Shown in pieces: positions 4,440-32,837 of a DNA stretch of 64,000 nt; within the stretch, counting starts at the first letter, position 1, and each line of letters opens with the position of its first letter. The notes beneath the pieces were generated by a model that worked only from the letters and a program-made list of their open reading frames with translations, had not been told where the DNA came from and did not search any database. Position numbers and translations under genes: made by a program. This DNA is from Escherichia coli (GTDB lineage: Bacteria; Pseudomonadota; Gammaproteobacteria; Enterobacterales; Enterobacteriaceae): assembly GCF_013122565.1 (NCBI RefSeq), contig NZ_CP053258.1, one strand, 5' to 3'.

Positions 4440-5391
4440 CATCATTAAACTGGCGCTGGCGGGATTGCTTAGCGTCTCTACGATTGTGGTTGCTGCAGAA
4501 TCCTCGCCTGAAGCGTTAAGGATTGGCTATCAGAAAAGCAATATCAGTTCTGTGCTGGCGAAAAATTACCAAATGCTGGAAAAACGCTATCCGCAAACAA
4601 AAATCTCGTGGGTGGAGTTTCCCGCGGGACCGCAAATGTTGGAAGCGTTAAACGTTGGCAGTATTGATCTCGGCAGTACCGGGGATATTCCGCCAATCTT
4701 TGCCCAGGCTGCCGGGGCTGATTTGGTATATGTGGGCGTCGAGCCACCGAAGCCCAAAGCCGAAGTGATTCTGGTGGCAGAAAACAGCCCGATCAAAACC
4801 GTAGCCGATCTTAAAGGTCACAAAGTTGCCTTTCAGAAAGGTTCCAGTTCACACAACCTTTTACTGCGTGCACTGCGTCAGGCCGGACTTAAGTTTACCG
4901 ATATACAACCCACTTACCTGACACCCGCTGATGCCCGCGCCGCGTTCCAGCAAGGTAACGTTGACGCCTGGGCTATCTGGGATCCCTACTACTCTGCTGC
5001 ATTATTACAGGGCGGCGTGCGGGTGTTGAAAGACGGCACCGATCTCAATCAAACCGGATCGTTTTATCTGGCAGCTCGCCCCTATGCAGAAAAAAACGGC
5101 GCTTTTATTCAGGGCGTACTGGCAACTTTCAGCAAGGCTGATGCGTTAACTCGCAGCCAGCGTGAGCAAAGCATCGCTTTACTGGCCAAAACAATGGGTT
5201 TACCGGCACCGGTGATTGCCTCGTATCTGGATCATCGTCCTCCCACCACCATCAAACCGGTGAGCGCTGAAGTTGCCGCCTTACAGCAGCAAACGGCAGA
5301 TCTGTTTTATGAAAACCGTCTGGTGCCGAAAAAAGTCGATATTCGCCAGCGCATCTGGCAGCCCACTCAACTGGAAGGAAAACAATTATGA
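4432..5391 (+). CDS. ssuA: Aliphatic sulfonate ABC transporter periplasmic binding protein SsuA
   Basis: ORF 4390..5391; start chosen at [21 protein letters not shown] signal peptide (319 aa); overlaps ssuE stop by 8 nt. Confidence 0.93.
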
Positions 5392-6543: not shown

Positions 6544-7335
6544 ATGGCAACGCCAGTGAAGAAGTGGTTATTGCGCGTTGCCCCCTGGTTTTTACCGGTG
6601 GGCATCGTGGCGGTGTGGCAACTGGCCTCCTCAGTTGGCTGGCTGTCGACGCGTATTTTGCCCTCACCGGAAGGGGTGGTGATGGCGTTCTGGACGCTCT
6701 CCGCCAGCGGCGAACTGTGGCAGCATCTGGCGATCAGCACCTGGCGGGCGCTGATTGGCTTTTCAATTGGCGGATCGCTGGGCTTGATTCTGGGACTGAT
6801 TAGCGGGCTGTCACGCTGGGGAGAACGGCTGCTGGATACCTCCATTCAGATGTTGCGCAACGTGCCGCATCTGGCGCTGATCCCGCTGGTGATTTTGTGG
6901 TTTGGCATTGATGAATCCGCAAAAATCTTTCTGGTGGCGCTCGGTACGCTATTCCCCATTTATATCAACACCTGGCACGGCATCCGTAATATCGATCGCG
7001 GGTTGGTGGAAATGGCGCGTAGCTATGGATTATCCGGCATACCGCTGTTTATCCATGTGATCCTGCCTGGTGCCCTGCCCTCAATTATGGTCGGCGTGCG
7101 TTTTGCGTTGGGCCTGATGTGGCTGACGCTGATTGTTGCCGAAACCATTTCTGCCAATTCAGGCATTGGTTATCTGGCGATGAATGCGCGGGAGTTTTTG
7201 CAAACGGACGTGGTGGTAGTCGCTATTATTCTTTACGCCTTGCTCGGCAAACTTGCTGACGTCAGCGCGCAGCTGTTAGAGCGCCTCTGGTTGCGCTGGA
7301 ATCCGGCTTATCATTTGAAGGAGGCCACGGTATGA
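6544..7335 (+). CDS. ssuC: Aliphatic sulfonate ABC transporter permease SsuC
   Basis: ORF 6499..7335; start at [19 protein letters not shown] (263 aa); multi-TM permease. Confidence 0.92.
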
Positions 7336-18308: not shown

Positions 18309-20156
18309 TTACCTGATTAATTGTTCCGCTTTCGATACGATTTGCGAGCTGGATCGCGCAGGCAGATCATAATTGTAAATATCTGTACGATACTGGGTAC
18401 GACCATCTGCACCAACAAAGGCCGTCAGGTAGTAGAGATTCACCGGAATCGACTGCCGAATATTGACGTAACGTGTATCACCCTGCTTCAGCGCATCAGA
18501 AATACGTTTGTCATTCCAGCCTGCATCCTGCAACAGCATATTCGCCAGATCGGAAGCTTTATTCACTCGTACACAGCCTGAGCTCAATGCGCGTGTATCA
18601 CGCTTGAACAGATTGTGGTTCGGCGTGTCATGCAAATAAATGGCCTCTGAACTCGGCATATTGAATTTATAGCGCCCCAGCGAGTTTCGTGGGCCTGGAG
18701 CCTGCTGGAAGCGGAACGGTAAATTCGAGGCCGTGATTGTAGACCAGTCAACCTGCCATGGGTCAATCGCTTCTCTGCTGTTCCAGCCGCGCATCACCGT
18801 ATAGCCATGGCTTTCGAGATATCCCGGATCGTTGCGCACTTTCGGCAGAATATCTTTGCGTGCCAGAGTTGGTGGTACGTTCCACGGCGGGTTTACCACT
18901 ACGTTGTTAAGGGCACTGCTCATCATCGGCGTTTTGCGATCGGGGCGACCGACAATGACTCGCGAATCCAGCACCTGATTGCCGTTCTGATAATAAACCA
19001 GCGAATAGGCCGGAATGTTAACCATGATCCCGGTAGAAAGCTCTGTTGGCAGCAAGCGCAATCGCTGGATGTTGAGAGCCAACACGCCAGCACGCTGGGC
19101 GGGCGTTACGTTTAACCAGTCCCGCGTTGCCGGGCCAATAGCACCATCTGCCCCCAATCCTTGCCATGCCTGAAAACGTTTAACGGCTTCCACCAGTTCA
19201 TTATCGTAGGCGGCACGAACGGCAGGCGCAGGTTTACTACGAGACGTCGTTTGTTTGTCCATCGGTTTAGTTTCTGCTGTTTCAACAGTAACAGCGGATG
19301 GGCTGACTACCGCGTCACTTGGCGTGTCATCGCCAGGTAGAGTAATTTTCGGCCCCCCGTCCAACATGCCTGTGCGTTGCAATATTTCGCGCAACGCCGG
19401 TACGTCGTTACTCCACTGCCCTGGGCGCAACGTTGCTTTACCGGTCAGTTGAGGCCACGGTTTGGTGTCACTGAGTAAGGCCAGTAACGATTCATGCATC
19501 GCCGCATATTGCGGATGCTGCGGTGCCAGTCCTGCAACAAACGTAGGCAATTGACCTTTATCCAGCGCCAGCTGCCATTGGTTAATCACCGAAAGCGGCG
19601 GCGTTGAAAGCGCATAAGGTTTACTGCTATATAGCCAGCGAGTGCCTTTGACCGGAATATTTGCAATGAAATGGAGATAGCCCATCATCGCATCGGAGAG
19701 CACCACGTCGCGTGCCATCCCGTTAACACCAGGATCGGTCAGTAACTCTACCCATTTATTAAACTGCGGCTGGAAACCGGCAATCGCCACCTCTGCCAGC
19801 TGTTGCTGGAAGGCTTTAACAGCATCACGGTTTTCCCACATGGGTTGCATATCGCGTGCGGCATACAACAGTTGAAGCTGGTTAAGATAAACCGGCTTGT
19901 AACCTGCGGGTAATTGAGATTCGATTTGCGTGCGGGCTTTTTCAGCCGCACCTTCAGGCAATGGCTGGATCCCCGCCATTATTGCCGTGGCTTGCGCCTG
20001 CGGCAGTGCCTCGCCCTGTTCACTGACAGCCACCGGGCTGTCGCCAGGGATTACTTCAGGCTCATCGGCCTGCGCATTGAACAGTGGAGCGAATGTTACG
20101 GCCAGGCACAAACTGATTGCCGACAGCCGACGACCACACATCATATTAAGCAACAT
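18309..20156 (-). CDS. ldtD: L,D-transpeptidase LdtD (YcbB)
   Basis: 615-aa ORF with signal peptide and YkuD-type catalytic region (…ALSSGCVRV…). Confidence 0.92.
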
Positions 20157-20377
20157 CCCTTGCCCCCTGTTTTTATCATACTCTGAATAGCCAGGCTGTT
20201 ATTTTACGACTTGCCTGTACAACGCCAATACTCACGAAAGTATGACGAGCAAGCCTGTTACTCATCAGGCTTATCTTCAGTATATAAACGCCGATACGTT
20301 TTTACATAACCTAATGTAAAGAAGTTTAAAGAAAAGCGCGCCGTTATGTGCCATTTTTTTAGTGCAGAAACGGAGTT

Positions 20378-20412
20378 TTCGGAAAAAGAAAAGGCGGCAT
20401 TGCTGCCGCCTT
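20378..20412 (-). terminator. Rho-independent terminator after mukB
   Basis: AAGGCGGCA-ttgc-TGCCGCCTT hairpin; on the mukB strand followed by UUUUCUUUUUCC. Confidence 0.6.
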
Positions 20413-20416
20413 AATT

Positions 20417-23400
20417 TTAACTCGCCTGAGAAGGCGCTTCGTCACTTCCTGGAAGCGTTTCAGGGAGTTGCGGCGCAAATCCTCGCAGGCCGACGACATG
20501 AACGTGTTCGGTATTCTGGAAGACTTTACGTACCAGTTTATAGGTGGTGCCTTTTTCCGGACTGATATTTTCCGGCGCTGCGATGATGAGCTGCATTTGC
20601 AAACGTTCACACAATTCAAACAGCGTGGCGATAGAACGAGCATCCAGTCGCGCTGCTTCATCGAGGAACAGCAGGCGGCAAGGAGAGATATCTTTACCGC
20701 GCAGACGGCGAGATTCATCTTCCCAGCTTTGTACCACCATCACCAGAATCGACATACCGGTACCAATCGCCTCACCGGTCGACAATGCACCAGACTCTGC
20801 GCGCAACCAGCCATCGGAACCACGGTTAACCTCAACTTCCATTTCCAGATAGTTGCGGTAATCCAGCAGTTCTTCGCCAATGGTCTGCGGCGTGCGCTGC
20901 CCCATATCAATCTGCGGATTAAGACGCTGATACAATTTCGCCAGCGCTTCCGAGAAGGTCAGACGGTTGCTGTTAAACAGATCCTGATGCTGCTCGTGCT
21001 GTTCAGAGAGCACATCCAGCAGCATGGCGTGCGTTTCACGCACGTTCACGTTCAGGCGGACGCTGTTCACCTGACCGAACGATACGTTCTGCAAGCCCTG
21101 GTTGAGCATACGGATACGGTTCTGTTCGCGCTGAATAGTTTTGCGGATGATGTTCGCCACACTGCGGGAACTGATTGCCAGTTTCTGTTCACGGGAGGTT
21201 AACTCTTCGGTCAGACGGCTAAGTTCGATCTCCATCTGCTCGATAGCTTCCACTGGATCATCGGTACGAATAATATCCTGACGAATACGTTCACGCAGAT
21301 GCTGATAAACCGCCACGAAGAACTGGATTTTGCGCTCAGGTCGTTTCGGATCTTCCGACATACGCAGCACATCGCGCAGATGTTCGTTATCCGCCACCGC
21401 CAGACGCAGCGCACCCAACGCCTTATCCGACATGGAGCGCAAATCATCAGCGGAGAGATAAGCCAGCTCACGACGGTGTAAGCGGCGCTCAACGCCGTTA
21501 TCTTTCACCATGCGCATCACCGCACACCAGCCCGCTTTGGCGGTCACTACCTGCTCGCGCATCTCAAAGTAATCCCGCTCCAGCTTGCGCAGTTTGCGGG
21601 TCAGGTTGTCCATCTCCGCTTCGCAGAAGGTAAGCGCTTTTTCCAGTTGATTGCGGCGTGAACGGTTATTGCTCAGTTGCGCATGCAGCTCGTCACGGCG
21701 AATACGCGCCCGCTCTTCTGCCCCGCTATCAGCACGCACGCCGATATCCTGCAATTCACGTTGCAGATCGTTGAGTAGCTCTTTTTTGGTGTCGTAAGAA
21801 CTTTTCAGCGAAGCCAGCACCTGGTTGTACTGACTCAACTGCGCTGCGTGACCGCGCAACGCTTCGCGAGCGCGGGTACGCTCCGCTTCCGCCTGTTCCA
21901 GACGTTCACGCAGTTTTTCGTTGAGATCGCTGTTACCGCTAAGCATTTCTGCCGAGTCAGAGTAGCTAAAGTGCGCACGACGCTGCACCACTTCCGTCAG
22001 GGCAAACGCCTGCTGACGGGCATCACGCTGCATCTGCTGAGAGTACGCGTAATCTTCTTTTAACTGTTCGAACTGTTCCGGGTCGCTCTGCAACACTGAA
22101 ACAATCGGTTCCAGTTTCGCCAGTTGATTGCCAAACTGCTGAACAAAACGCGCGGCTTCCTGGGCTTCATCCAGACGTTCGCGGATTTCATCGACGCGAT
22201 CCGCCAGGCTGTCATCAGCCAACAGGTTGAGACGCGGCAGAATGCGGTTCAGCGCCGTAACGCCCTCTTTCGCCTGCTCAAATTGAATACGCTGCTGCTG
22301 GTTATCATTTTCATGATTACTCAGCGCCCGCTCCAGTTCGACGCGACGGCTGTTCAGTTGACGGATTTCTGCTTCCGGGTCAGACTCAAACGCCACCGCC
22401 AGATGACTGCCGATAAAGCGGCTGAACGCCTGATGCAGACGCTGGGTTTTCTGTACATCAAAGGAGAGCGTGGCGAAGCGTTCGGAAAGCACTTCACGCT
22501 CGGCATGGAGGCTTTCAATACGGCTTTCACGCGCAGCACGACCAAACAGCGGCACTTCCGGGAAACGTGAATAACGCCACTGACGATCGGCGATTTTCAC
22601 CACTACCGCTTTTTCCAGCTCATCAACGCTGAACACGCTGTCATCGAATGACTGCGGATCCCCTTCGATCAAATAGAGATCTTCCGGGCAATCGGTCAAG
22701 CCTTCCAGGTGTTCGGTTACCTGTGACAGATCTGGCACCACGATGGCGTGGCGTGACGGGCCATACAATGCCGAGAAGTACGGCGCATCTTCCAGGCTAA
22801 CGTCGTCATAAATTTCTGACAGCAGCACACCACCAAAACGCTCCGCCAGCGCGTTCAGACGCTGATCTTCCGAGCCGCCAGGCTGGCTTAAACGTTCGAT
22901 CTCTTCATCGACAGCGTTTTTGCGCGCGCCCACTTCATCGCGTTCAACAATCGCCTCTCGCTCACGCTCCAGCAACTGTTGCAGATATTCGGTAACGTCC
23001 TGGCTGGAGGTGAACTCTTCGCCGCACTGTTCGCTCAACTGGTTGAGACTGTTTTGCGCTGCCAGCCAAACCGGCGCACGCTGCATCAAACTCTGAATGC
23101 GAGACTGCAGCTGTTCCTGCTCCTGGCGCAGTGCCATACGCTCTTCGCGGGCGTTAGACACGCTATCGGAAAGAGAGGCAATACGCGCTTCCAGCTCCTG
23201 ATGCAGGGCTTCCAGTTCGTCGATATCAAAATTCTTGCCCTGACGTTTGCAGAAATCTGCCAGCAGGCGTTCGGCTTCTTGCTGCTCGCGCAGACGCTGT
23301 TCCAGTTCGCTTAAGCGCATCCGCAACGGCTGAACCTGCTCTGCCAGGTGACGCTGATCGACCCCTTCGCGCAATAGTTCGCGAGCGACATCCCACGCCT

Positions 23401-24877
23401 CGTTACGCGCCAGCGGGCCGTTGATTGCCACCACCAGCTGATAAGCCTGCTCAAACTGGCTGTGCGCGGTTTGCGCCATGCTCATTTTCTGCTCAAGAGA
23501 GAGCATTTTTTCAGTCGCTTCCAGCTCTTTCGCCTGGAAGGTTTCCAGCCATTCGGCGGCGCTGTCGGCGGTTAAGTCCGGCAGATGGCACAGTTCTTTG
23601 GCACGATTAAGCGCAGCAATCGCCTGGTTATACTGGATCGCGCGCGTTTGCTGGACGTCCAGCGCCTGCTGATAGTCAGCAAGCTGGCTTTTCAGCTCGT
23701 CCACTTCCAGTTCGGCAGCTTCCGCACGAGCCTCGTTCTCTTCCTGGCGTTCGATGGCTTCTGCCACCACTTCGTTTTGCTCTTCCAGACGGATCTGCAG
23801 CTCATCAAGATCCGCTTCGTAACGTTCGATCTTCTCCTGCTGACGTAGTGCGGTTTGCACCAGGTTCAGGTGATCGCTGGCCGCCTGATAATCTGCTTCC
23901 AGATCGCCTTCGGCACCGTTGTGCTCTGCCAGCTCACGCGCCATATCGACGTGTTTGTACTGCTCAGCCGCCAGTTGCTGACGCGAAGTATGTAGCTCGC
24001 GACGAAACTCCAGGGCTTTGTCGAGATGGACACGGCGCTCGTTGGCGTGACGCATGTAGTCCGCCGCCACGTAGTTGGTGGCTTCGCTGATCAGATGCTT
24101 AAACAGGTCACGGTCCGACTGGGTGACACGAATCGCTTCCAGCGTCATGCGATTTTCACGCAGTGCCGCTTCCATGTCCTGGAACGCTTTACGCACCCCG
24201 CTGTTTTCCGGCAACAGGTAGTCGCGCAGAGAACGGGTAATGGCACTGGAGATCCCGCCATACAGCGAAGCTTCGATCAGACGATAGAATTTGCTACGGT
24301 CAGATGCGGAGCGCAGACGACGCGCGATGATGCCCAGATCGAACATCAGCGAGTGGTAATCGGTAATGGAGTTGAACTGTTTAAACTGCACGCCTTCCAT
24401 CGCCTCGAGCTTGTCTTTCAGCTCGTTAAGCGGCAGCACGCGCGCCTGGCGTTCGTTCAGGGTTTCGGTCACCAACTGCGTCGGCTGCACCGACATCGGT
24501 AAACCCTGAATGGCAAACGGTTTGATATCGACTTTACGATCGCGTCCGGCAACCTGTTGCAGACGCACACCGACCACCACGCGCTGGTGGCGCGAGTTAA
24601 TGGTGTCGAGCATCGAATAACAGACACCCGCTTTCAGCTTACCGTGCAGACCTTTATCGCGCGAACCGCTGGTGGCCCCGGCTTCCGTAGTGTTACGGAA
24701 ATGCAGCAGGGTCAGGTCGGGGATCAGCGCCGTAACGAACGCCGCCATGGTGGTGGATTTACCCGCCCCGTTACCGCCAGAAAGCGTCGTGACCAGCTCG
24801 TCAAGGTCAAAAGTTCGGGCAAAAAAGCCGTTCCAGTTAATCAGCGTCAGTGAGCGAAATTTACCGCGTTCAATCAT
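20417..24877 (-). CDS. mukB: Chromosome partition (condensin) protein MukB
   Basis: 1486-aa [26 protein letters not shown]…; Walker [10 protein letters not shown]; long coiled-coil regions. Confidence 0.97.
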
Positions 24878-25581
24878 TATTCTTCCTCTCCGCTATCTGG
24901 CTGATTCTCTTCGGTTTCATCGTTGAGTTGCAGATGATTTTCAATCGGCATTGCTTCGCCATCACGAATCAGGCGACGCTGTGCTTCACGGGGATCGTCG
25001 CCAGCACGCACATCGGCTCCGAAGCGGAACACCGATTCGGTAATGCGGAACTTGCTGCTGTCGTGGCCCATAAACCACACCATGCCTAAACGACGCAGAC
25101 GGTTGAGCGAAGAACGTACTTTTTCCTGCAACTTCTGACGGTCAACGTCTGAACCGGTTGAACGGTTGTTCACCAGTTTCAGCAGTTTCGCTTCATCGGC
25201 CAGGGTGAGCAGTTCGTCGTACAGTTCCTGTTGAGTAAAAATCCCCTCATTCGCCAGCCGTTCCGGGCTGAGATAGAGATAACAGAGGATTTTCCCGACC
25301 ATCATATCCAGTTCCGACAAGACGGAACGAGGGATCAGCGTGGTGGAACGTGGACGTAAATAGAAGAACCCTTCCGGTGCACGAATAAGCTCAACGTTAT
25401 AACGCGCGTAAAACTCTTCCAGATATTCCTGAAAATCCATCAGGAATGCATGATTATCCAGTTCGTCGAGGCCAATATGGCGGCCTGAACGTAAGGCGCT
25501 GTCCAGCGCCGGAAATAACGGATTCGCCAGCGCCTGCGCCAGCTTAACCGGCATCACTTGTTCAATATTTGTCGATGACAT
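24877..25581 (-). CDS. mukE: Chromosome partition protein MukE
   Basis: ORF 24877..25608; start placed at [21 protein letters not shown] (234 aa); stop overlaps mukB ATG (TAATG). Confidence 0.88.
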
Positions 25582-26884
25582 GCGCCTGTACCTTGGCTCC
25601 GTAATCATTAATCGGCTGCCATTTCGCTGGCAGTCCGGTGAAATCTGCTTGCGCTACGCCAAGACGTACCGCCTGATCAATAACAATGCGCGCAACGTCA
25701 AAGTGACGTGCACGCGGATACTGTGACAGATATTCGCGTACCACCAGACCAAGATCCAGCGGCACTTGTCTGGTTTTGTACACAGCAAGTTGTTCTTCGA
25801 TGATCGCCGCCAGCTGTTCGCGGATCTCGTTAAATTCTTCGTATTCCAAATCTGGCGGAAGTTCCCCAGTCACTTCTTCATCGCGCAGTGCCATCTCTTC
25901 GTCACGCATATCCAGCAGACGATCGGCATTGGCATAAGTTAGCGCCCACGGCTCATCAAAATAGGTTTGTACCGACTGACGTAACCGCTGAGCAAAGACG
26001 CGGTTTTTATCCATATCGATCGCGGTACGAATAAATTTATGTACGTGGCGGTCGTAGCCAATCCACAAATCGATGGATTGCTGGCCCCAACTGATAATAC
26101 GGTCGAGTTTGCTCTGCAGATCGAACACCAGACGATCGACAAAATGCAGATCGTCATGAGTCATCGTCGCATCCTGAATGCGCAACAGATTAGCCTGCAA
26201 TTTGTCGCCTGCCGCTTCCAGCGTATCCTGCAATTCACGCAGCGTTCCGGAAGTTTCCGAAAGCAACAATTCACAGCTGGAAATCGCCGCCCGCCAGTCT
26301 TTGTTCAGCAACTGGGCAATATCGTCCTTCACCTGCTGCTGCTGTTCGTCCATCAGACGTTGCGTCAGGTCGATACTGTCGAAAATTTCTGCTACCGAAT
26401 ATTTCAGTGGCGCATAGACATTACGGTGCCAGTGAAATTCATCACCGCCCTCTTCGGCGGCATCTGCTGCGCGTTTTAGCTCACCCGCCACAATCGACAA
26501 CTGCATAGAAAGACGCAGCGTAGAAAACTCGCGCTGACGGATGTAATAGTCAGTAATGCCGATGCCGAGCGGCGTCAGACGGTAAATTGCGTTCCCTTCC
26601 GCCTGCTCGCTGGTAAAGCGGTTCAGCAGACGTTGACGCACCATGTCGTTGATCGCGTTGTTGGCGCGCACGCCGATGGTTTCGCTGGTTTGCTCAAACG
26701 CATCACTCACATGGCGGAATGCATCCACCAGCTCGCCTTCACTCATCTCACCATCCAGACGCTCGCTGTTCAGCGTGGCAACCGCCAGCAGAAAAGAGAG
26801 TCGGTCTACCGGCAGCGAGATGGAGAAGTCATTTTTTCTGGCCCAGGCAACCAGTTCGGGGACTGTCTGGGAAAATTCACTCAT
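25562..26884 (-). CDS. mukF: Chromosome partition protein MukF (kleisin)
   Basis: 440-aa [37 protein letters not shown]…. Confidence 0.95.
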
Positions 26885-27666
26885 ACTTTATCCTTGCTCT
26901 GCGGTTTGCGCGCGGTGACATGAATATAACGCCCCAGGGTAATATACGGTTCCTGACGGCAATAACGCGTTTCTAATTCAAGTAATGCTTCATAGCAGTC
27001 GCGCTGCTGGTGCTTCTCGCGCAGATAATCATGAAACACACGAACGCCTGTCTTACCCATAATTTGCCAACCAGCTTCTTCCAGCCACAGATAAACCTGC
27101 GCAGGGTCGCGTGGATAATCTGGCGAAAGCGTCCGTTTTTTCTTTTTCGGCATTCCCGCCTGCACGTAATCAAAATTCCCGGCGACCATGTTATGCATCA
27201 ACAAACCATGCGCATTGTAGAACATTAACGACAACACGCCGCCTGGACGCAACACTGACCACAGGGTCTGCAATACGCTGCGGGGATCAGCCACCCACTC
27301 GAGCACCGCATGGAACAATATCAGATCAACGGGCGTTTCCAAATGCGAAGCAACATCCTGAGCGGCGCAATGTATAAATTGCATGTTGTCGCTCACACCT
27401 TTTGCTTCTGCCGCCTGTTTTGCGCGGACGATCATCTGCGCAGAAAGATCGCATAAAATAACCTGATGCCCACGCTCGGCCATTTTGATTGCAGTCTGCC
27501 CTTCTCCACCGCCCGCATCCAGCACACGCAGTTTTTGCGGGCCCATTTCCGCCAGCACGCGATCGAGATCCTGCCACAGAATAGCCTGTCGAAGCTGTCC
27601 TTTGGTGGTGCCGTAAATGTTACGGGAAAACTTTTCCGCAATATCATCAAAATTGCGATCCTGCAT
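26881..27666 (-). CDS. cmoM: SAM-dependent tRNA methyltransferase CmoM (SmtA)
   Basis: ORF 26881..27678; start at [20 protein letters not shown] (261 aa); class I MTase motif LDAGGGEG; ATGA overlap with mukF. Confidence 0.9.
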
Positions 27667-27801
27667 TGCTTTCTCCACCGGTTGGCTAAGACGTTTTCTG
27701 ATAAAGACGCTATTTTGTCACAGCCACGGCGAGAATGAACCCGTCTGGTGTAATATCGCTGGCGATCCCTTGCTATATGGTCAAAAAAGGAACCAGAAAG
27801 G

Positions 27802-28581
27802 ATGCTTTTTACACTGAAAAAAGTGATCGGCGGTATGCTGCTGCCACTTCCGCTGATGTTGTTAATTATTGGCGCTGGCCTGGCGCTGCTGTGGTTTAGC
27901 CGTTTTCAAAAAACCGGGAAGATTTTTATTAGCATTGGGTGGCTGGCACTCTTGTTATTGAGTTTGCAACCGGTAGCCGACCGGCTGCTGCGTCCCATCG
28001 AAAGCACCTATCCGACATGGAATAATTCGCAAAAAGTGGACTATATCGTGGTGCTCGGAGGTGGTTATACCTGGAACCCACAGTGGGCACCGAGCTCTAA
28101 TTTAATCAATAACAGTCTGCCACGCCTGAATGAAGGTATTCGCTTATGGCGCGCAAATCCGGGATCAAAGCTGATCTTCACGGGAGGCGTAGCAAAAACC
28201 AATACGGTGAGTACAGCGGAAGTAGGTGCCAGAGTTGCGCAATCGCTGGGCGTGCCGCGCGAGCAAATTATCACCCTGGATTTGCCAAAAGATACCGAAG
28301 AAGAAGCTGCGGCAGTGAAACAGGCGATTGGTGTCGCCCCTTTCCTGCTGGTGACCTCCGCATCACATCTGCCGCGGGCGATGATCTTTTTTCAGCAGGA
28401 AGGGTTAAATCCGCTACCAGCCCCGGCGAATCAGCTGGCCATCGACTCGCCGCTTAACCCGTGGGAACGGGCAATCCCTTCTCCGGTCTGGTTAATGCAT
28501 AGCGACCGCGTTGGCTATGAAACGCTTGGTCGCATCTGGCAGTGGCTGAAAGGTTCGTCAGGCGAGCCACGGCAAGAGTGA
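27802..28581 (+). CDS. elyC: Envelope biogenesis factor ElyC (YcbC), DUF218 family
   Basis: 259-aa ORF MLFTLKKVIGGMLLPLPLMLLIIGAGLALLWF…. Confidence 0.9.
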   Translation: MLFTLKKVIGGMLLPLPLMLLIIGAGLALLWFSRFQKTGKIFISIGWLALLLLSLQPVADRLLRPIESTYPTWNNSQKVDYIVVLGGGYTWNPQWAPSSNLINNSLPRLNEGIRLWRANPGSKLIFTGGVAKTNTVSTAEVGARVAQSLGVPREQIITLDLPKDTEEEAAAVKQAIGVAPFLLVTSASHLPRAMIFFQQEGLNPLPAPANQLAIDSPLNPWERAIPSPVWLMHSDRVGYETLGRIWQWLKGSSGEPRQE

Positions 28582-29451
28582 TTTTGATGCCAGATCGAAG
28601 TTGCGCCGACTAAATCGTCCGGTATTAACCAGTTGCGCAACTTCATCCCATAACACATACAACCAACGCCGCCAGATGAACGACTCCGCCACTGGCGCGC
28701 GTTGCAGGTAACTCCAGAGCAAATCTTCCGCCAGAGAATTATCCATTAGTCGGAACAGTTCGTATTCCCGCGGTGCCCAAAGCATTAGTCCCGGCCCGAC
28801 CATCGCCAGTAACTGATCGCTGCGCGAATCTTTCAGCATGCTGCGTAAACAGAAGTTACCGTGAATCAGCACACAATTGTCGTTAAAGCCTTCAAATAAT
28901 GCCGGGAGACATTCGCGAGTGCGGAACAGGATCCGCTTATCCTGCATCGTCAGACCGGTGTTATTGAACTGATTGAGCGTGGTCCATAGCACTTCAACAT
29001 GTTGCCGGTACCATGAGGGCCAGAAATTTTCCTGAGTATTGTCGACCGCGCCGACGCAACCGCGACTGTCCTGACGGTGCCAGGCCAGTAAGGCTTCAAC
29101 GATTTGGTCTTTGAGCTGTTCCCAGCGTTCTGGTGTTCGGGCTGGTGCTTCCACCGAAACACCACGCATCCGCTCCAGTAGCAGGACATCGGGGCCGGAG
29201 TGTTCTTCATGCGTCATCACACCATAAATAGTCGGCATACGGACAGTCCCACTTCTTGCCAGCATGGTGGTTTTCCATGCCAGCTGTCGGGCTTTTCCGG
29301 GCGTACTAAAGCTTCTTGCCATTAACGGCATTGGGTTTCCCTGGCTGTCATACAAAGCCCACAACGCCGTATCCGCTTTTTCATTGACGCACTCAATACG
29401 ACTGAGTTTTTCGCCCAGTAAATGGCTTAATTCGGCACGCAGCTGTTCCAT
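28558..29451 (-). CDS. ycbJ: Uncharacterised kinase-fold (APH/choline-kinase-like) protein YcbJ
   Basis: 297-aa ORF MEQLRAELSHLLGEKLSRIECVNEKADTALWALYD…; 3' end overlaps elyC 3' end by 24 nt (convergent). Confidence 0.88.
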   Translation of the reverse strand: MEQLRAELSHLLGEKLSRIECVNEKADTALWALYDSQGNPMPLMARSFSTPGKARQLAWKTTMLARSGTVRMPTIYGVMTHEEHSGPDVLLLERMRGVSVEAPARTPERWEQLKDQIVEALLAWHRQDSRGCVGAVDNTQENFWPSWYRQHVEVLWTTLNQFNNTGLTMQDKRILFRTRECLPALFEGFNDNCVLIHGNFCLRSMLKDSRSDQLLAMVGPGLMLWAPREYELFRLMDNSLAEDLLWSYLQRAPVAESFIWRRWLYVLWDEVAQLVNTGRFSRRNFDLASKSLLPWLA

Positions 29452-31850: not shown

Positions 31851-32837
31851 CTAGTTGCCAGAAGCCAGCGAGGTTAGTTGCGTAAGCAGTTTCGCTGGTT
31901 CTTCACCTGAAAGCTGTGCGTCAACGGGCAAATACCACCAATTTTCTTCTGCAAAGGCCCGGCATTTCACCGCATCTTTTTCAGTCATTACCAGCGTTTG
32001 CCCGGTGCTTACCAACGCGCTGACATCCGCATGGTTCAAAGACTGATGATCGGCCAGCGGTACACATTTTTCCGGTTGTACGCCGCACATCTTCAGCGTG
32101 GCAAAAAAGCGCGGCGGATGCCCAATCCCCGCCATCGCCACTACATGTTCAAGCTGAGCAACGTCACAACGCGTACCGGTACGTAAATTCACCGCCTGAC
32201 CCGGCAGCAGATGCATGGGGATTTCACCGCTGCGGGGGACACCGCCGTTGACGATTACCGCATCAACCGACTTTAAGCGCCCCGCTCGCTCACGCATTGG
32301 CCCCGCCGGCAACCACCAGCCATTGCCAAAGCGACGCACACCATCAATAACGACAATTTCCACATCACGCGCCAGACGGTAATGCTGTAAACCGTCGTCG
32401 GTTACGATGATCTGCACATCAGGGTGTTGCGCCAGAATGGCTTTTACCGCATCAGAACGCACGGGAGAAACCGCAACGGGCGCGCCAGTGCGTTGATAAA
32501 TCAACACAGGTTCATCACCCGCCTGTGCTGTGGTGGTATCTGCCGACAATAACAGCGGATAAGATTCAGCCTTACCACCATATCCCCGCGATACGACCCC
32601 CACGCGAATACCGCGCTGTTGCAACTGTTCCACCAGCCAGACAACGACCGGGGTTTTTCCGTTGCCGCCTGCGGTGAGATTACCAACCACGACAACCGGT
32701 ACGGGGGCACGCCAGGCGCGCTTCAGTTTTAGTTTATAGCAAAGACGGATCGCGCCACTCACCAGGCCATACAAGCAGGAGAGTGGCAGCAATAGCCGCC
32801 ACAAAGGGGATTCACCAGACCAGATTTTTTCGATCAT
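31851..32837 (-). CDS. lpxK: Tetraacyldisaccharide 4'-kinase
   Basis: 328-aa ORF with P-loop [12 protein letters not shown]; 4-nt overlap with msbA stop. Confidence 0.95.

Follow-up and report, generated by a model that had tools for sequence, protein, structure and literature searches.

The question raised by the four genes cmoM, mukF, mukE and mukB, which span positions 27666 to 20417 on the minus strand of a 64,000-nucleotide (nt) stretch of Escherichia coli DNA (contig NZ_CP053258.1 of RefSeq assembly GCF_013122565.1; hereafter the window), is whether the stop/start overlaps at their three junctions bind them into one translationally coupled unit with a fixed ratio of MukF, MukE and MukB, as a sequence-only reading of this DNA had proposed, or whether they form an ordinary operon in which the output of each gene is set at its own ribosome-binding site. 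With a probability of about 0.88, the locus is the chromosomal cmoM(smtA)-mukF-mukE-mukB operon in the arrangement of strain K-12, with the ribosome-binding sites of the individual genes chiefly setting output. The gene order and extents given below were obtained from the listing of open reading frames (ORFs), by reading the reverse complement and by a scripted check.

27666..26881, minus strand: cmoM (formerly smtA), tRNA cmo5U34 methyltransferase of 261 amino acids; ATG at 27666, TGA at 26883..26881, Shine-Dalgarno sequence GGAG at 27676..27673
26884..25562, minus strand: mukF, kleisin subunit of 440 amino acids; ATG at 26884, TGA at 25564..25562
25581..24877, minus strand: mukE, KITE subunit of 234 amino acids; ATG at 25581, TAA at 24879..24877
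24877..20417, minus strand: mukB, SMC-like ATPase of 1486 amino acids; ATG at 24877, TAA ending at 20417

The identities, order and coordinates claimed for these genes hold when they are compared with the ORFs, with NCBIfam equivalog models and with the RefSeq annotations of K-12 and O157:H7. All four products match their models end to end and well over the curated cut-offs: CmoM scores 502.5 bits against NF008264 (cut-off 366; residues 1-261 of 261), MukF 844 bits against NF003615 (residues 1-440 of 440), MukE 412 bits against NF003602, the profile of which starts at residue 4 of the 234-amino-acid form, and MukB 2647 bits against NF003422 (residues 1-1484). Identical junctions of -4, -20 and -1 nt (minus signs denoting overlaps) are found in RefSeq K-12 (b0921-b0924; NC_000913.3, 973537-980786), and the RefSeq annotation of O157:H7 has the same geometry. 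As in both of these strains, the operon is flanked upstream by the divergent elyC (ORF 27802..28581, plus strand) and downstream by ldtD (ORF 18309..20156, minus strand).

Out of 5,426 complete E. coli genomes, only one is without the 7.5-kb stretch; the others have it at 95-99% identity, with a coverage of at least 80% in 5,424 of them, and the matching DNA carries the annotations cmoM, mukF, mukE and mukB. For the segment 20300-27800 the best match among 5,425 complete E. coli genomes does not exceed 98.6% identity. Nucleotide identity to K-12 is 98.2%, the approximately 130 substitutions being mostly synonymous, with six amino-acid differences in 2,421 codons. The DNA may stem from a lineage that this collection does not cover, such as a Shigella or an E. 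coli clade yet to be sampled. Over the same segment, GTDB representatives are further off, with 92.2% for E. albertii and 93.2% and 94.0% for two divergent genomes labelled E. coli. No Rfam family was matched within 20000-28200.

According to the citations in PMC4255302, PMC3871593 and PMC545778, the operon was described as smtA-mukF-mukE-mukB by Yamanaka et al. in 1995/1996, and PMC4737166 identified SmtA as the cmo5U34 methyltransferase and gave it the name CmoM (2015). The presence of a tRNA-modification methyltransferase at the head of a condensin operon, which the sequence-only reading had pointed out, is correct and already in the literature: the operon is a known, ordinary feature, and the tRNA-modification enzyme in it is an older fact under a newer gene name.

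The three junctions between the genes, together with the Shine-Dalgarno sequences preceding the downstream starts, are as follows.

26881..26884, minus strand: ATGA junction, the TGA of cmoM overlapping the ATG of mukF by 4 nt
26895..26891, minus strand: Shine-Dalgarno sequence AAGGA of mukF, inside cmoM
25581..25562, minus strand: out-of-frame overlap of 20 nt between the 3' end of mukF and the 5' end of mukE
25594..25590, minus strand: Shine-Dalgarno sequence AAGGT of mukE, with an additional GGAG at 25600..25597, inside mukF
24877, minus strand: TAATG junction, a single A closing the TAA of mukE and opening the ATG of mukB (1 nt)
24891..24882, minus strand: Shine-Dalgarno sequence GGAGAGGAAG of mukB, inside mukE

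All three overlaps had been described in this form, and they are found as such both in the sequence and in RefSeq K-12. Their conservation was followed in one scan of species-representative genomes, the closest 80 loci of which all belong to the Enterobacterales, from Escherichia to Serratia and Pantoea (78 enterobacterial species); these were analysed by tblastn and an ORF script, and more distant loci were reached via 50%-identity MukF representatives and exact-sequence contig look-ups. Every junction is tight, with a gap of at most 3 nt, in the 80 enterobacterial loci, but two of the three geometries differ among species and only that between mukF and mukE is constant. In particular, cmoM and mukF are separated by -8 nt in 35 loci, by +3 nt in 29 and by -4 nt in 16, and mukE and mukB by -1 nt in 58, by -4 nt in 17 and by -8 nt in five, whereas mukF and mukE overlap by exactly 20 nt in every one of the 80 loci and likewise in Vibrio cholerae and in a gammaproteobacterial contig (L084). 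Overlaps of 4 nt and 1 nt are commonplace classes, and the conservation of the operon geometry is far beyond chance. Junctions of the ATGA type are in fact routine in this window, since at least three further 4-nt same-strand overlaps occur in it (5388-5391, 7332-7335 and 32834-32837); by size and position, the ORF pairs at these three sites putatively correspond to the ssu operon and to lpxK/msbA.

With respect to the output of the four genes, the comparison of ribosome-profiling densities that the sequence-only reading had proposed as a check has already been published. The synthesis rates of Li et al. 2014, determined by ribosome profiling in MOPS-glucose, are reproduced in Dataset EV6 of Mori et al. 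2021 as mass times copies, and division by the masses listed there yields 69 copies per generation for CmoM, 204 for MukF, 263 for MukE and 356 for MukB. In the values as reproduced in this dataset, output thus increases about five-fold between cmoM and mukB, each gene lying above its predecessor. All downstream starts are located within a few nucleotides of the upstream stop, as would be required for coupling by proximity, the overlaps being 4, 20 and 1 nt. A model relying on re-initiation only, however, demands that no downstream output exceed the upstream one, and the reproduced rates (69 < 204 < 263 < 356) contradict such a simple relay. Because re-initiating ribosomes cannot outnumber terminated ones, most of the initiation at mukF and part of that at mukE and mukB must be independent of the upstream cistron or come from extra transcripts.

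The MukBEF complex has the stoichiometry B4:E4:F2 (PMC8602292). From the rates in Dataset EV6 a B:E:F ratio of 1.75:1.29:1 is obtained, the rank order of which fits the complex, and the values are within about 1.6-fold of 2:2:1 without matching exactly either this ratio or 1:1:1. The earlier claim that tight coupling implies a fixed stoichiometry of MukF, MukE and MukB accordingly lacks support in the form given, as the reproduced rates of 204:263:356 rise along the operon; some coupling would be in keeping with the overlaps, which imply no fixed subunit ratio. Instead, one mRNA would start in the intergenic region between elyC and cmoM and end at a hairpin just past mukB, and on it the four cistrons would follow each other without spacers, each downstream start being served by its own Shine-Dalgarno sequence inside the preceding gene (AAGGA for mukF, AAGGT for mukE and GGAGAGGAAG for mukB). 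Relative output would then depend mainly on how strong the individual ribosome-binding sites are, with less MukF made than MukE or MukB, as expected for B4:E4:F2. Ribosomes that reach the end of the upstream gene may assist, either by re-initiating or by holding the next site unfolded, but they would not be the main source of downstream translation.

The putative boundaries of this transcription unit are the following.

27712..27739, minus strand: candidate operon promoter, with TTCATT at 27739..27734, a 16-nt spacer and the extended -10 element TGaCAAAAT, its -10 hexamer at 27717..27712
20412..20391, minus strand: terminator-like hairpin starting 4 nt past the mukB stop, with a 9-bp stem (six G-C pairs) and a 4-nt loop, followed by TTCTTTTTCC

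In an alignment of the 135-bp intergenic region between elyC and cmoM from 16 enterobacterial genera, the TTCATT and TGaCAAAAT blocks are the best conserved, and it is this conservation that suggests the promoter. Across the same 16 genera, positions 27712-27760 comprise the near-invariant blocks GATaTTACACCAGA, GGTTCATTCTC and TGTGACAAAATAG, the last two of which fit a -35 and an extended -10 element for cmoM. A strict consensus promoter scan called no site upstream of cmoM. The transcription unit probably ends at the hairpin at 20412..20391. Next to the operon, elyC (27802..28581, plus strand) and ycbJ (28558..29451, minus strand) are convergent, and their 3' ends share 24 nt (28558-28581), as in K-12.

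That smtA-mukFEB constitutes a single operon goes back to Yamanaka 1996, as cited in PMC4255302 and PMC3871593. The alternative that survives best, and that we consider unlikely though far from negligible, concerns this level: the output gradient might arise mainly from internal promoters or from 5' mRNA decay instead of the strength of the ribosome-binding sites, so that transcript levels of mukFEB would be partly independent of those of cmoM. In its favour, the promoter-proximal CmoM is made at one third of the rate of MukF according to the reproduced rates. However, the consensus scan called no sigma-70-like site on the coding strand within the operon, though it misses the operon's own promoter as well, and MukB expression is driven, with a 6.3-fold increase, by Para put in place of the promoter upstream of smtA (PMC7163298).

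A second and improbable alternative supposes that cmoM heads mukFEB through a functional tie of tRNA wobble methylation to condensin and not by mere inherited synteny. The linkage is indeed widely kept, namely in the 78 enterobacterial species, with cmoM directly upstream of mukF in all 77 species loci whose upstream DNA was included, as well as in V. cholerae, V. variabilis, V. maritimus and the contigs L094 and L084, and smtA-mukFEB is also predicted in V. fischeri. In V. cholerae, a divergent DUF218 gene is followed by cmoM, an 11-nt gap, mukF, the 20-nt overlap, mukE, a 4-nt overlap and mukB, and the 11-nt gap between cmoM and mukF recurs in V. variabilis, V. maritimus and L094. In L084, the MukF of which is 50% identical, cmoM is followed by a 36-nt gap, mukF, the 20-nt overlap, mukE, a 3-nt gap and mukB. 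Against a functional tie, mukF in the reduced aphid symbiont Candidatus Regiella insecticola LSR1 (L093, 3061-8687) lies directly after kdsB, with ycbJ, elyC and cmoM missing while mukFEB is kept; more distant Muk-like loci lack cmoM, and smtA is treated as unrelated to Muk function in PMC4255302 and PMC3871593. Since the linkage has been lost in a reduced symbiont genome, an obligatory functional tie between cmoM and condensin is improbable. Comparison of gene orders indicates that the linkage is old but dispensable, and cmoM would be a neighbour that is conserved yet dispensable and has no demonstrated part in how condensin works; in the literature searched, no paper names both cmoM and mukF.

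Two side observations belong to these comparisons. In the Regiella assembly mukF is split into two ORFs of 228 and 150 amino acids, and another Regiella record has a MukF of 440 amino acids. Furthermore, the 90%-identity cluster of V. cholerae MukF (P0121) also contains CmoM proteins of 259-260 amino acids, which probably reflects an artefact of clustering; a fused or read-through gene call across the 11-nt spacer between cmoM and mukF may have acted as a bridge.

Still less probable is the view with which the sequence-only reading had set out, in which the three overlaps make up one obligatorily coupled unit and termination-reinitiation fixes the MukF:MukE:MukB ratio. It can draw on the stop/start overlap at all three junctions, on their tightness in all 80 enterobacterial loci and on the fact that the subunits belong to one complex. 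However, its strict form is contradicted by the rise in synthesis rates from 69 over 204 and 263 to 356 in the reproduced dataset, and the complex is 4:4:2 and not 1:1:1 (PMC8602292). In addition, the cmoM/mukF and mukE/mukB geometries vary, with spacers of 11-36 nt in Vibrio and L084, and each start has its own Shine-Dalgarno sequence. A literature search joining the muk genes with "translational coupling" returned no relevant paper and no coupling experiment on this operon.

The extent of the overlap between mukF and mukE depends on where mukE starts, and on this point the codons of mukF are informative. The mukF codon providing the AT of the mukE ATG is CAT in 77 of the 80 loci, AAT in two and TAT in one; the residue thus varies between His, Asn and Tyr while the ATG is retained, and CAT accounts for 44% of the His codons in the rest of mukF. 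The following codon, for Val, is invariably GTC (80 of 80 loci), compared to 28% GTC in the rest of the gene, where GTG and GTA together make up 55% of the Val codons; at this position, these two would put TGA or TAA into the frame of mukE. Conservation of third codon positions is 0.91 over the last 20 codons of mukF and 0.99 over codons 427-433, in contrast to 0.70 gene-wide. The AAGGT at -13..-9 of the mukE start is kept in E. coli, V. cholerae and L084. As selection on synonymous sites in mukF retains the mukE ATG and an open frame behind it, the start at 25581 is favoured. In agreement with this start, the current RefSeq MukE was revised to 234 amino acids (NP_415443.2), and the MukE of Photorhabdus, annotated with 240 amino acids, aligns from the same start.

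Other in-frame candidates for the mukE start are ATG 25608 (243 amino acids), GTG 25557 and ATG 25554 (225 amino acids), the latter two lying downstream of the mukF stop; all three were rejected in favour of 25581 on comparative evidence. Of these, ATG 25554 corresponds to the older annotation and would abolish the mukF/mukE overlap altogether. The 225-amino-acid MukE was used for PDB 7V8P and, in tagged form, for 3RPU, while 3EUH, 9GMB and 9GMD contain the 234-amino-acid protein, and the Met encoded at 25554 (Met10) is kept in all 80 enterobacterial loci as well as in V. cholerae. However, no Shine-Dalgarno-like sequence is present in the 20 nt preceding ATG 25554 (GACAAATATTGAACAAGTG), Met10 is replaced by Leu (TTG) in L084 and by Ile in the MukE of Haemophilus ducreyi, and selection on synonymous sites in mukF maintains both the upstream ATG 25581 and a frame without stops from there to ATG 25554. 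Taken together with the RefSeq revision and the Photorhabdus alignment, this makes 25554 a very improbable start. Initiation at ATG 25608, which would give the longest ORF and a 47-nt overlap with mukF, is scarcely credible, given that this ATG, although present in 62 of 78 enterobacterial species, is missing in the other 16 as well as in V. cholerae and L084, follows the ordinary synonymous choice between AAT and AAC in an Asn codon of MukF and has no preceding Shine-Dalgarno sequence, and that the NCBIfam model of MukE sets in 12 residues later.

The choice between 25581 and 25608, which the sequence-only reading had left for a later check, therefore falls on 25581, by virtue of the codon constraint, the conserved AAGGT and the patchy occurrence of ATG 25608. 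In the same region, a hairpin with the stem CUGCCA/UGGCAG and a 6-nt loop is located at 25613-25637 (minus strand), inside mukF and 32-56 nt upstream of the mukE ATG. A hairpin of other sequence is predicted at the same place in V. cholerae (L083) and in L084. The hairpin falls on a conserved Gln/Pro...Trp peptide, and none of the fold z-scores reaches significance.

The 20-nt mukF/mukE overlap is maintained by synonymous-site selection in loci ranging from Escherichia to Vibrio, whereas the cmoM/mukF and mukE/mukB geometries drift. It may be a selected device and not just compact packing: ribosomes that terminate at the mukF stop, 20 nt past the mukE ATG, might free the mukE site or use it again, by which MukE output would be tied to that of MukF. 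Separately, the persistence of cmoM at the head of the operon in Enterobacterales and Vibrionaceae might stem from a shared regulation of condensin and growth-phase-dependent tRNA methylation. Both ideas are conjectures with a small chance of being right.

Several observations weigh against an operon whose output is chiefly set at its individual ribosome-binding sites. According to the reproduced rates, MukE is synthesised at 1.29 times the rate of MukF, short of the two-fold excess expected from 4:4:2, and uncalibrated xTop mass spectrometry in the same table gives another B:E:F ratio, of about 3.4:2.8:1. RNA folds of 100-nt windows at the three junctions are no stabler than those of shuffled sequence (z between -1.26 and +0.69); folding therefore gives no hint of a masked ribosome-binding site in need of opening by upstream ribosomes and lends no support to a coupling mechanism. 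The rise in output could partly stem from internal promoters or differential mRNA stability and not from the strength of the ribosome-binding sites, and the promoter has been placed by means of conserved blocks only. Finally, as Met10 is conserved in 80 of 80 enterics, some initiation at 25554 may take place.

Beyond the loci described so far, the layout of the muk genes becomes more variable. In a metagenome-assembled genome of Psittacicella the Muk junctions are +1 and -8. The locus at 1762-9641 of L088 codes for an enlarged MukF of 503 amino acids, a MukE of 457 amino acids (nearly twice the normal size) and a MukB of 1599 amino acids, with spacers of 56 and 138 nt; it is without cmoM and has a divergent leucyl-aminopeptidase-like gene upstream. 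Muk-like loci at 33-35% MukF identity have no cmoM either, one type of them being Wadjet-like with JetD. On the gene layouts compared, tight packing is general to the family, and the exact 20-nt overlap of mukF and mukE defines the canonical MukBEF clade sampled here.

Taken as a whole, the locus is a textbook operon for which the earlier description reproduces the reference annotation, and it has little import beyond housekeeping. Comparative evidence favours the mukE start at 25581 and hence the 234-amino-acid protein, and some structural work is still based on the 225-amino-acid form. As far as the published ribosome-profiling rates reproduced in Dataset EV6 show, overlapping stop and start codons at this locus do not amount to equimolar or purely relayed translation. 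The linkage of cmoM to mukFEB reaches the Vibrionaceae yet is absent in a reduced symbiont genome. A mild residual interest lies in the very strong selection on the 20-nt overlap and the mukE start, and in rates that contradict a simple relay model.

Compared to known systems, there is no structural difference from the smtA(cmoM)-mukFEB operon of E. coli K-12, which has the same genes in the same order and on the same strand, the same overlaps and the same flanking genes elyC and ldtD. The locus of the Vibrionaceae (V. cholerae, V. fischeri and V. maritimus) has the same order, including the divergent DUF218/elyC-like gene, and an identical 20-nt overlap of mukF and mukE, with the mukE ATG, the residues MSST and the AAGGT conserved as in E. 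coli. It differs in that an 11-nt spacer takes the place of the cmoM/mukF overlap, mukE and mukB overlap by 4 nt and MukF is 60% identical.

The MksBEF and Wadjet (JetABCD) systems share the order of kleisin, KITE and SMC genes and the tight or overlapping junctions (+5 and -11 in L090, -17 and +8 in L092). However, they have neither cmoM nor the 20-nt overlap, their MukF identity is 33-35%, and L090 and L091 add a JetD_C gene; moreover, they are plasmid-defence systems or accessory condensins, unlike the housekeeping MukBEF. In the metagenomic loci L090 (1108-8630) and L091 (402-7924), MukF (35% identical), MukE and MukB family genes precede the JetD_C gene, with junctions of +5, -11 and +11 and no cmoM.

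When set against the stop/start overlaps that are generic in bacteria (ATGA, TAATG/TGATG), the 4-nt and 1-nt overlaps of this operon are among the commonest classes, whereas the 20-nt overlap between mukF and mukE is longer than usual and unusually invariant, being found in 80 of 80 loci and in Vibrio as well.

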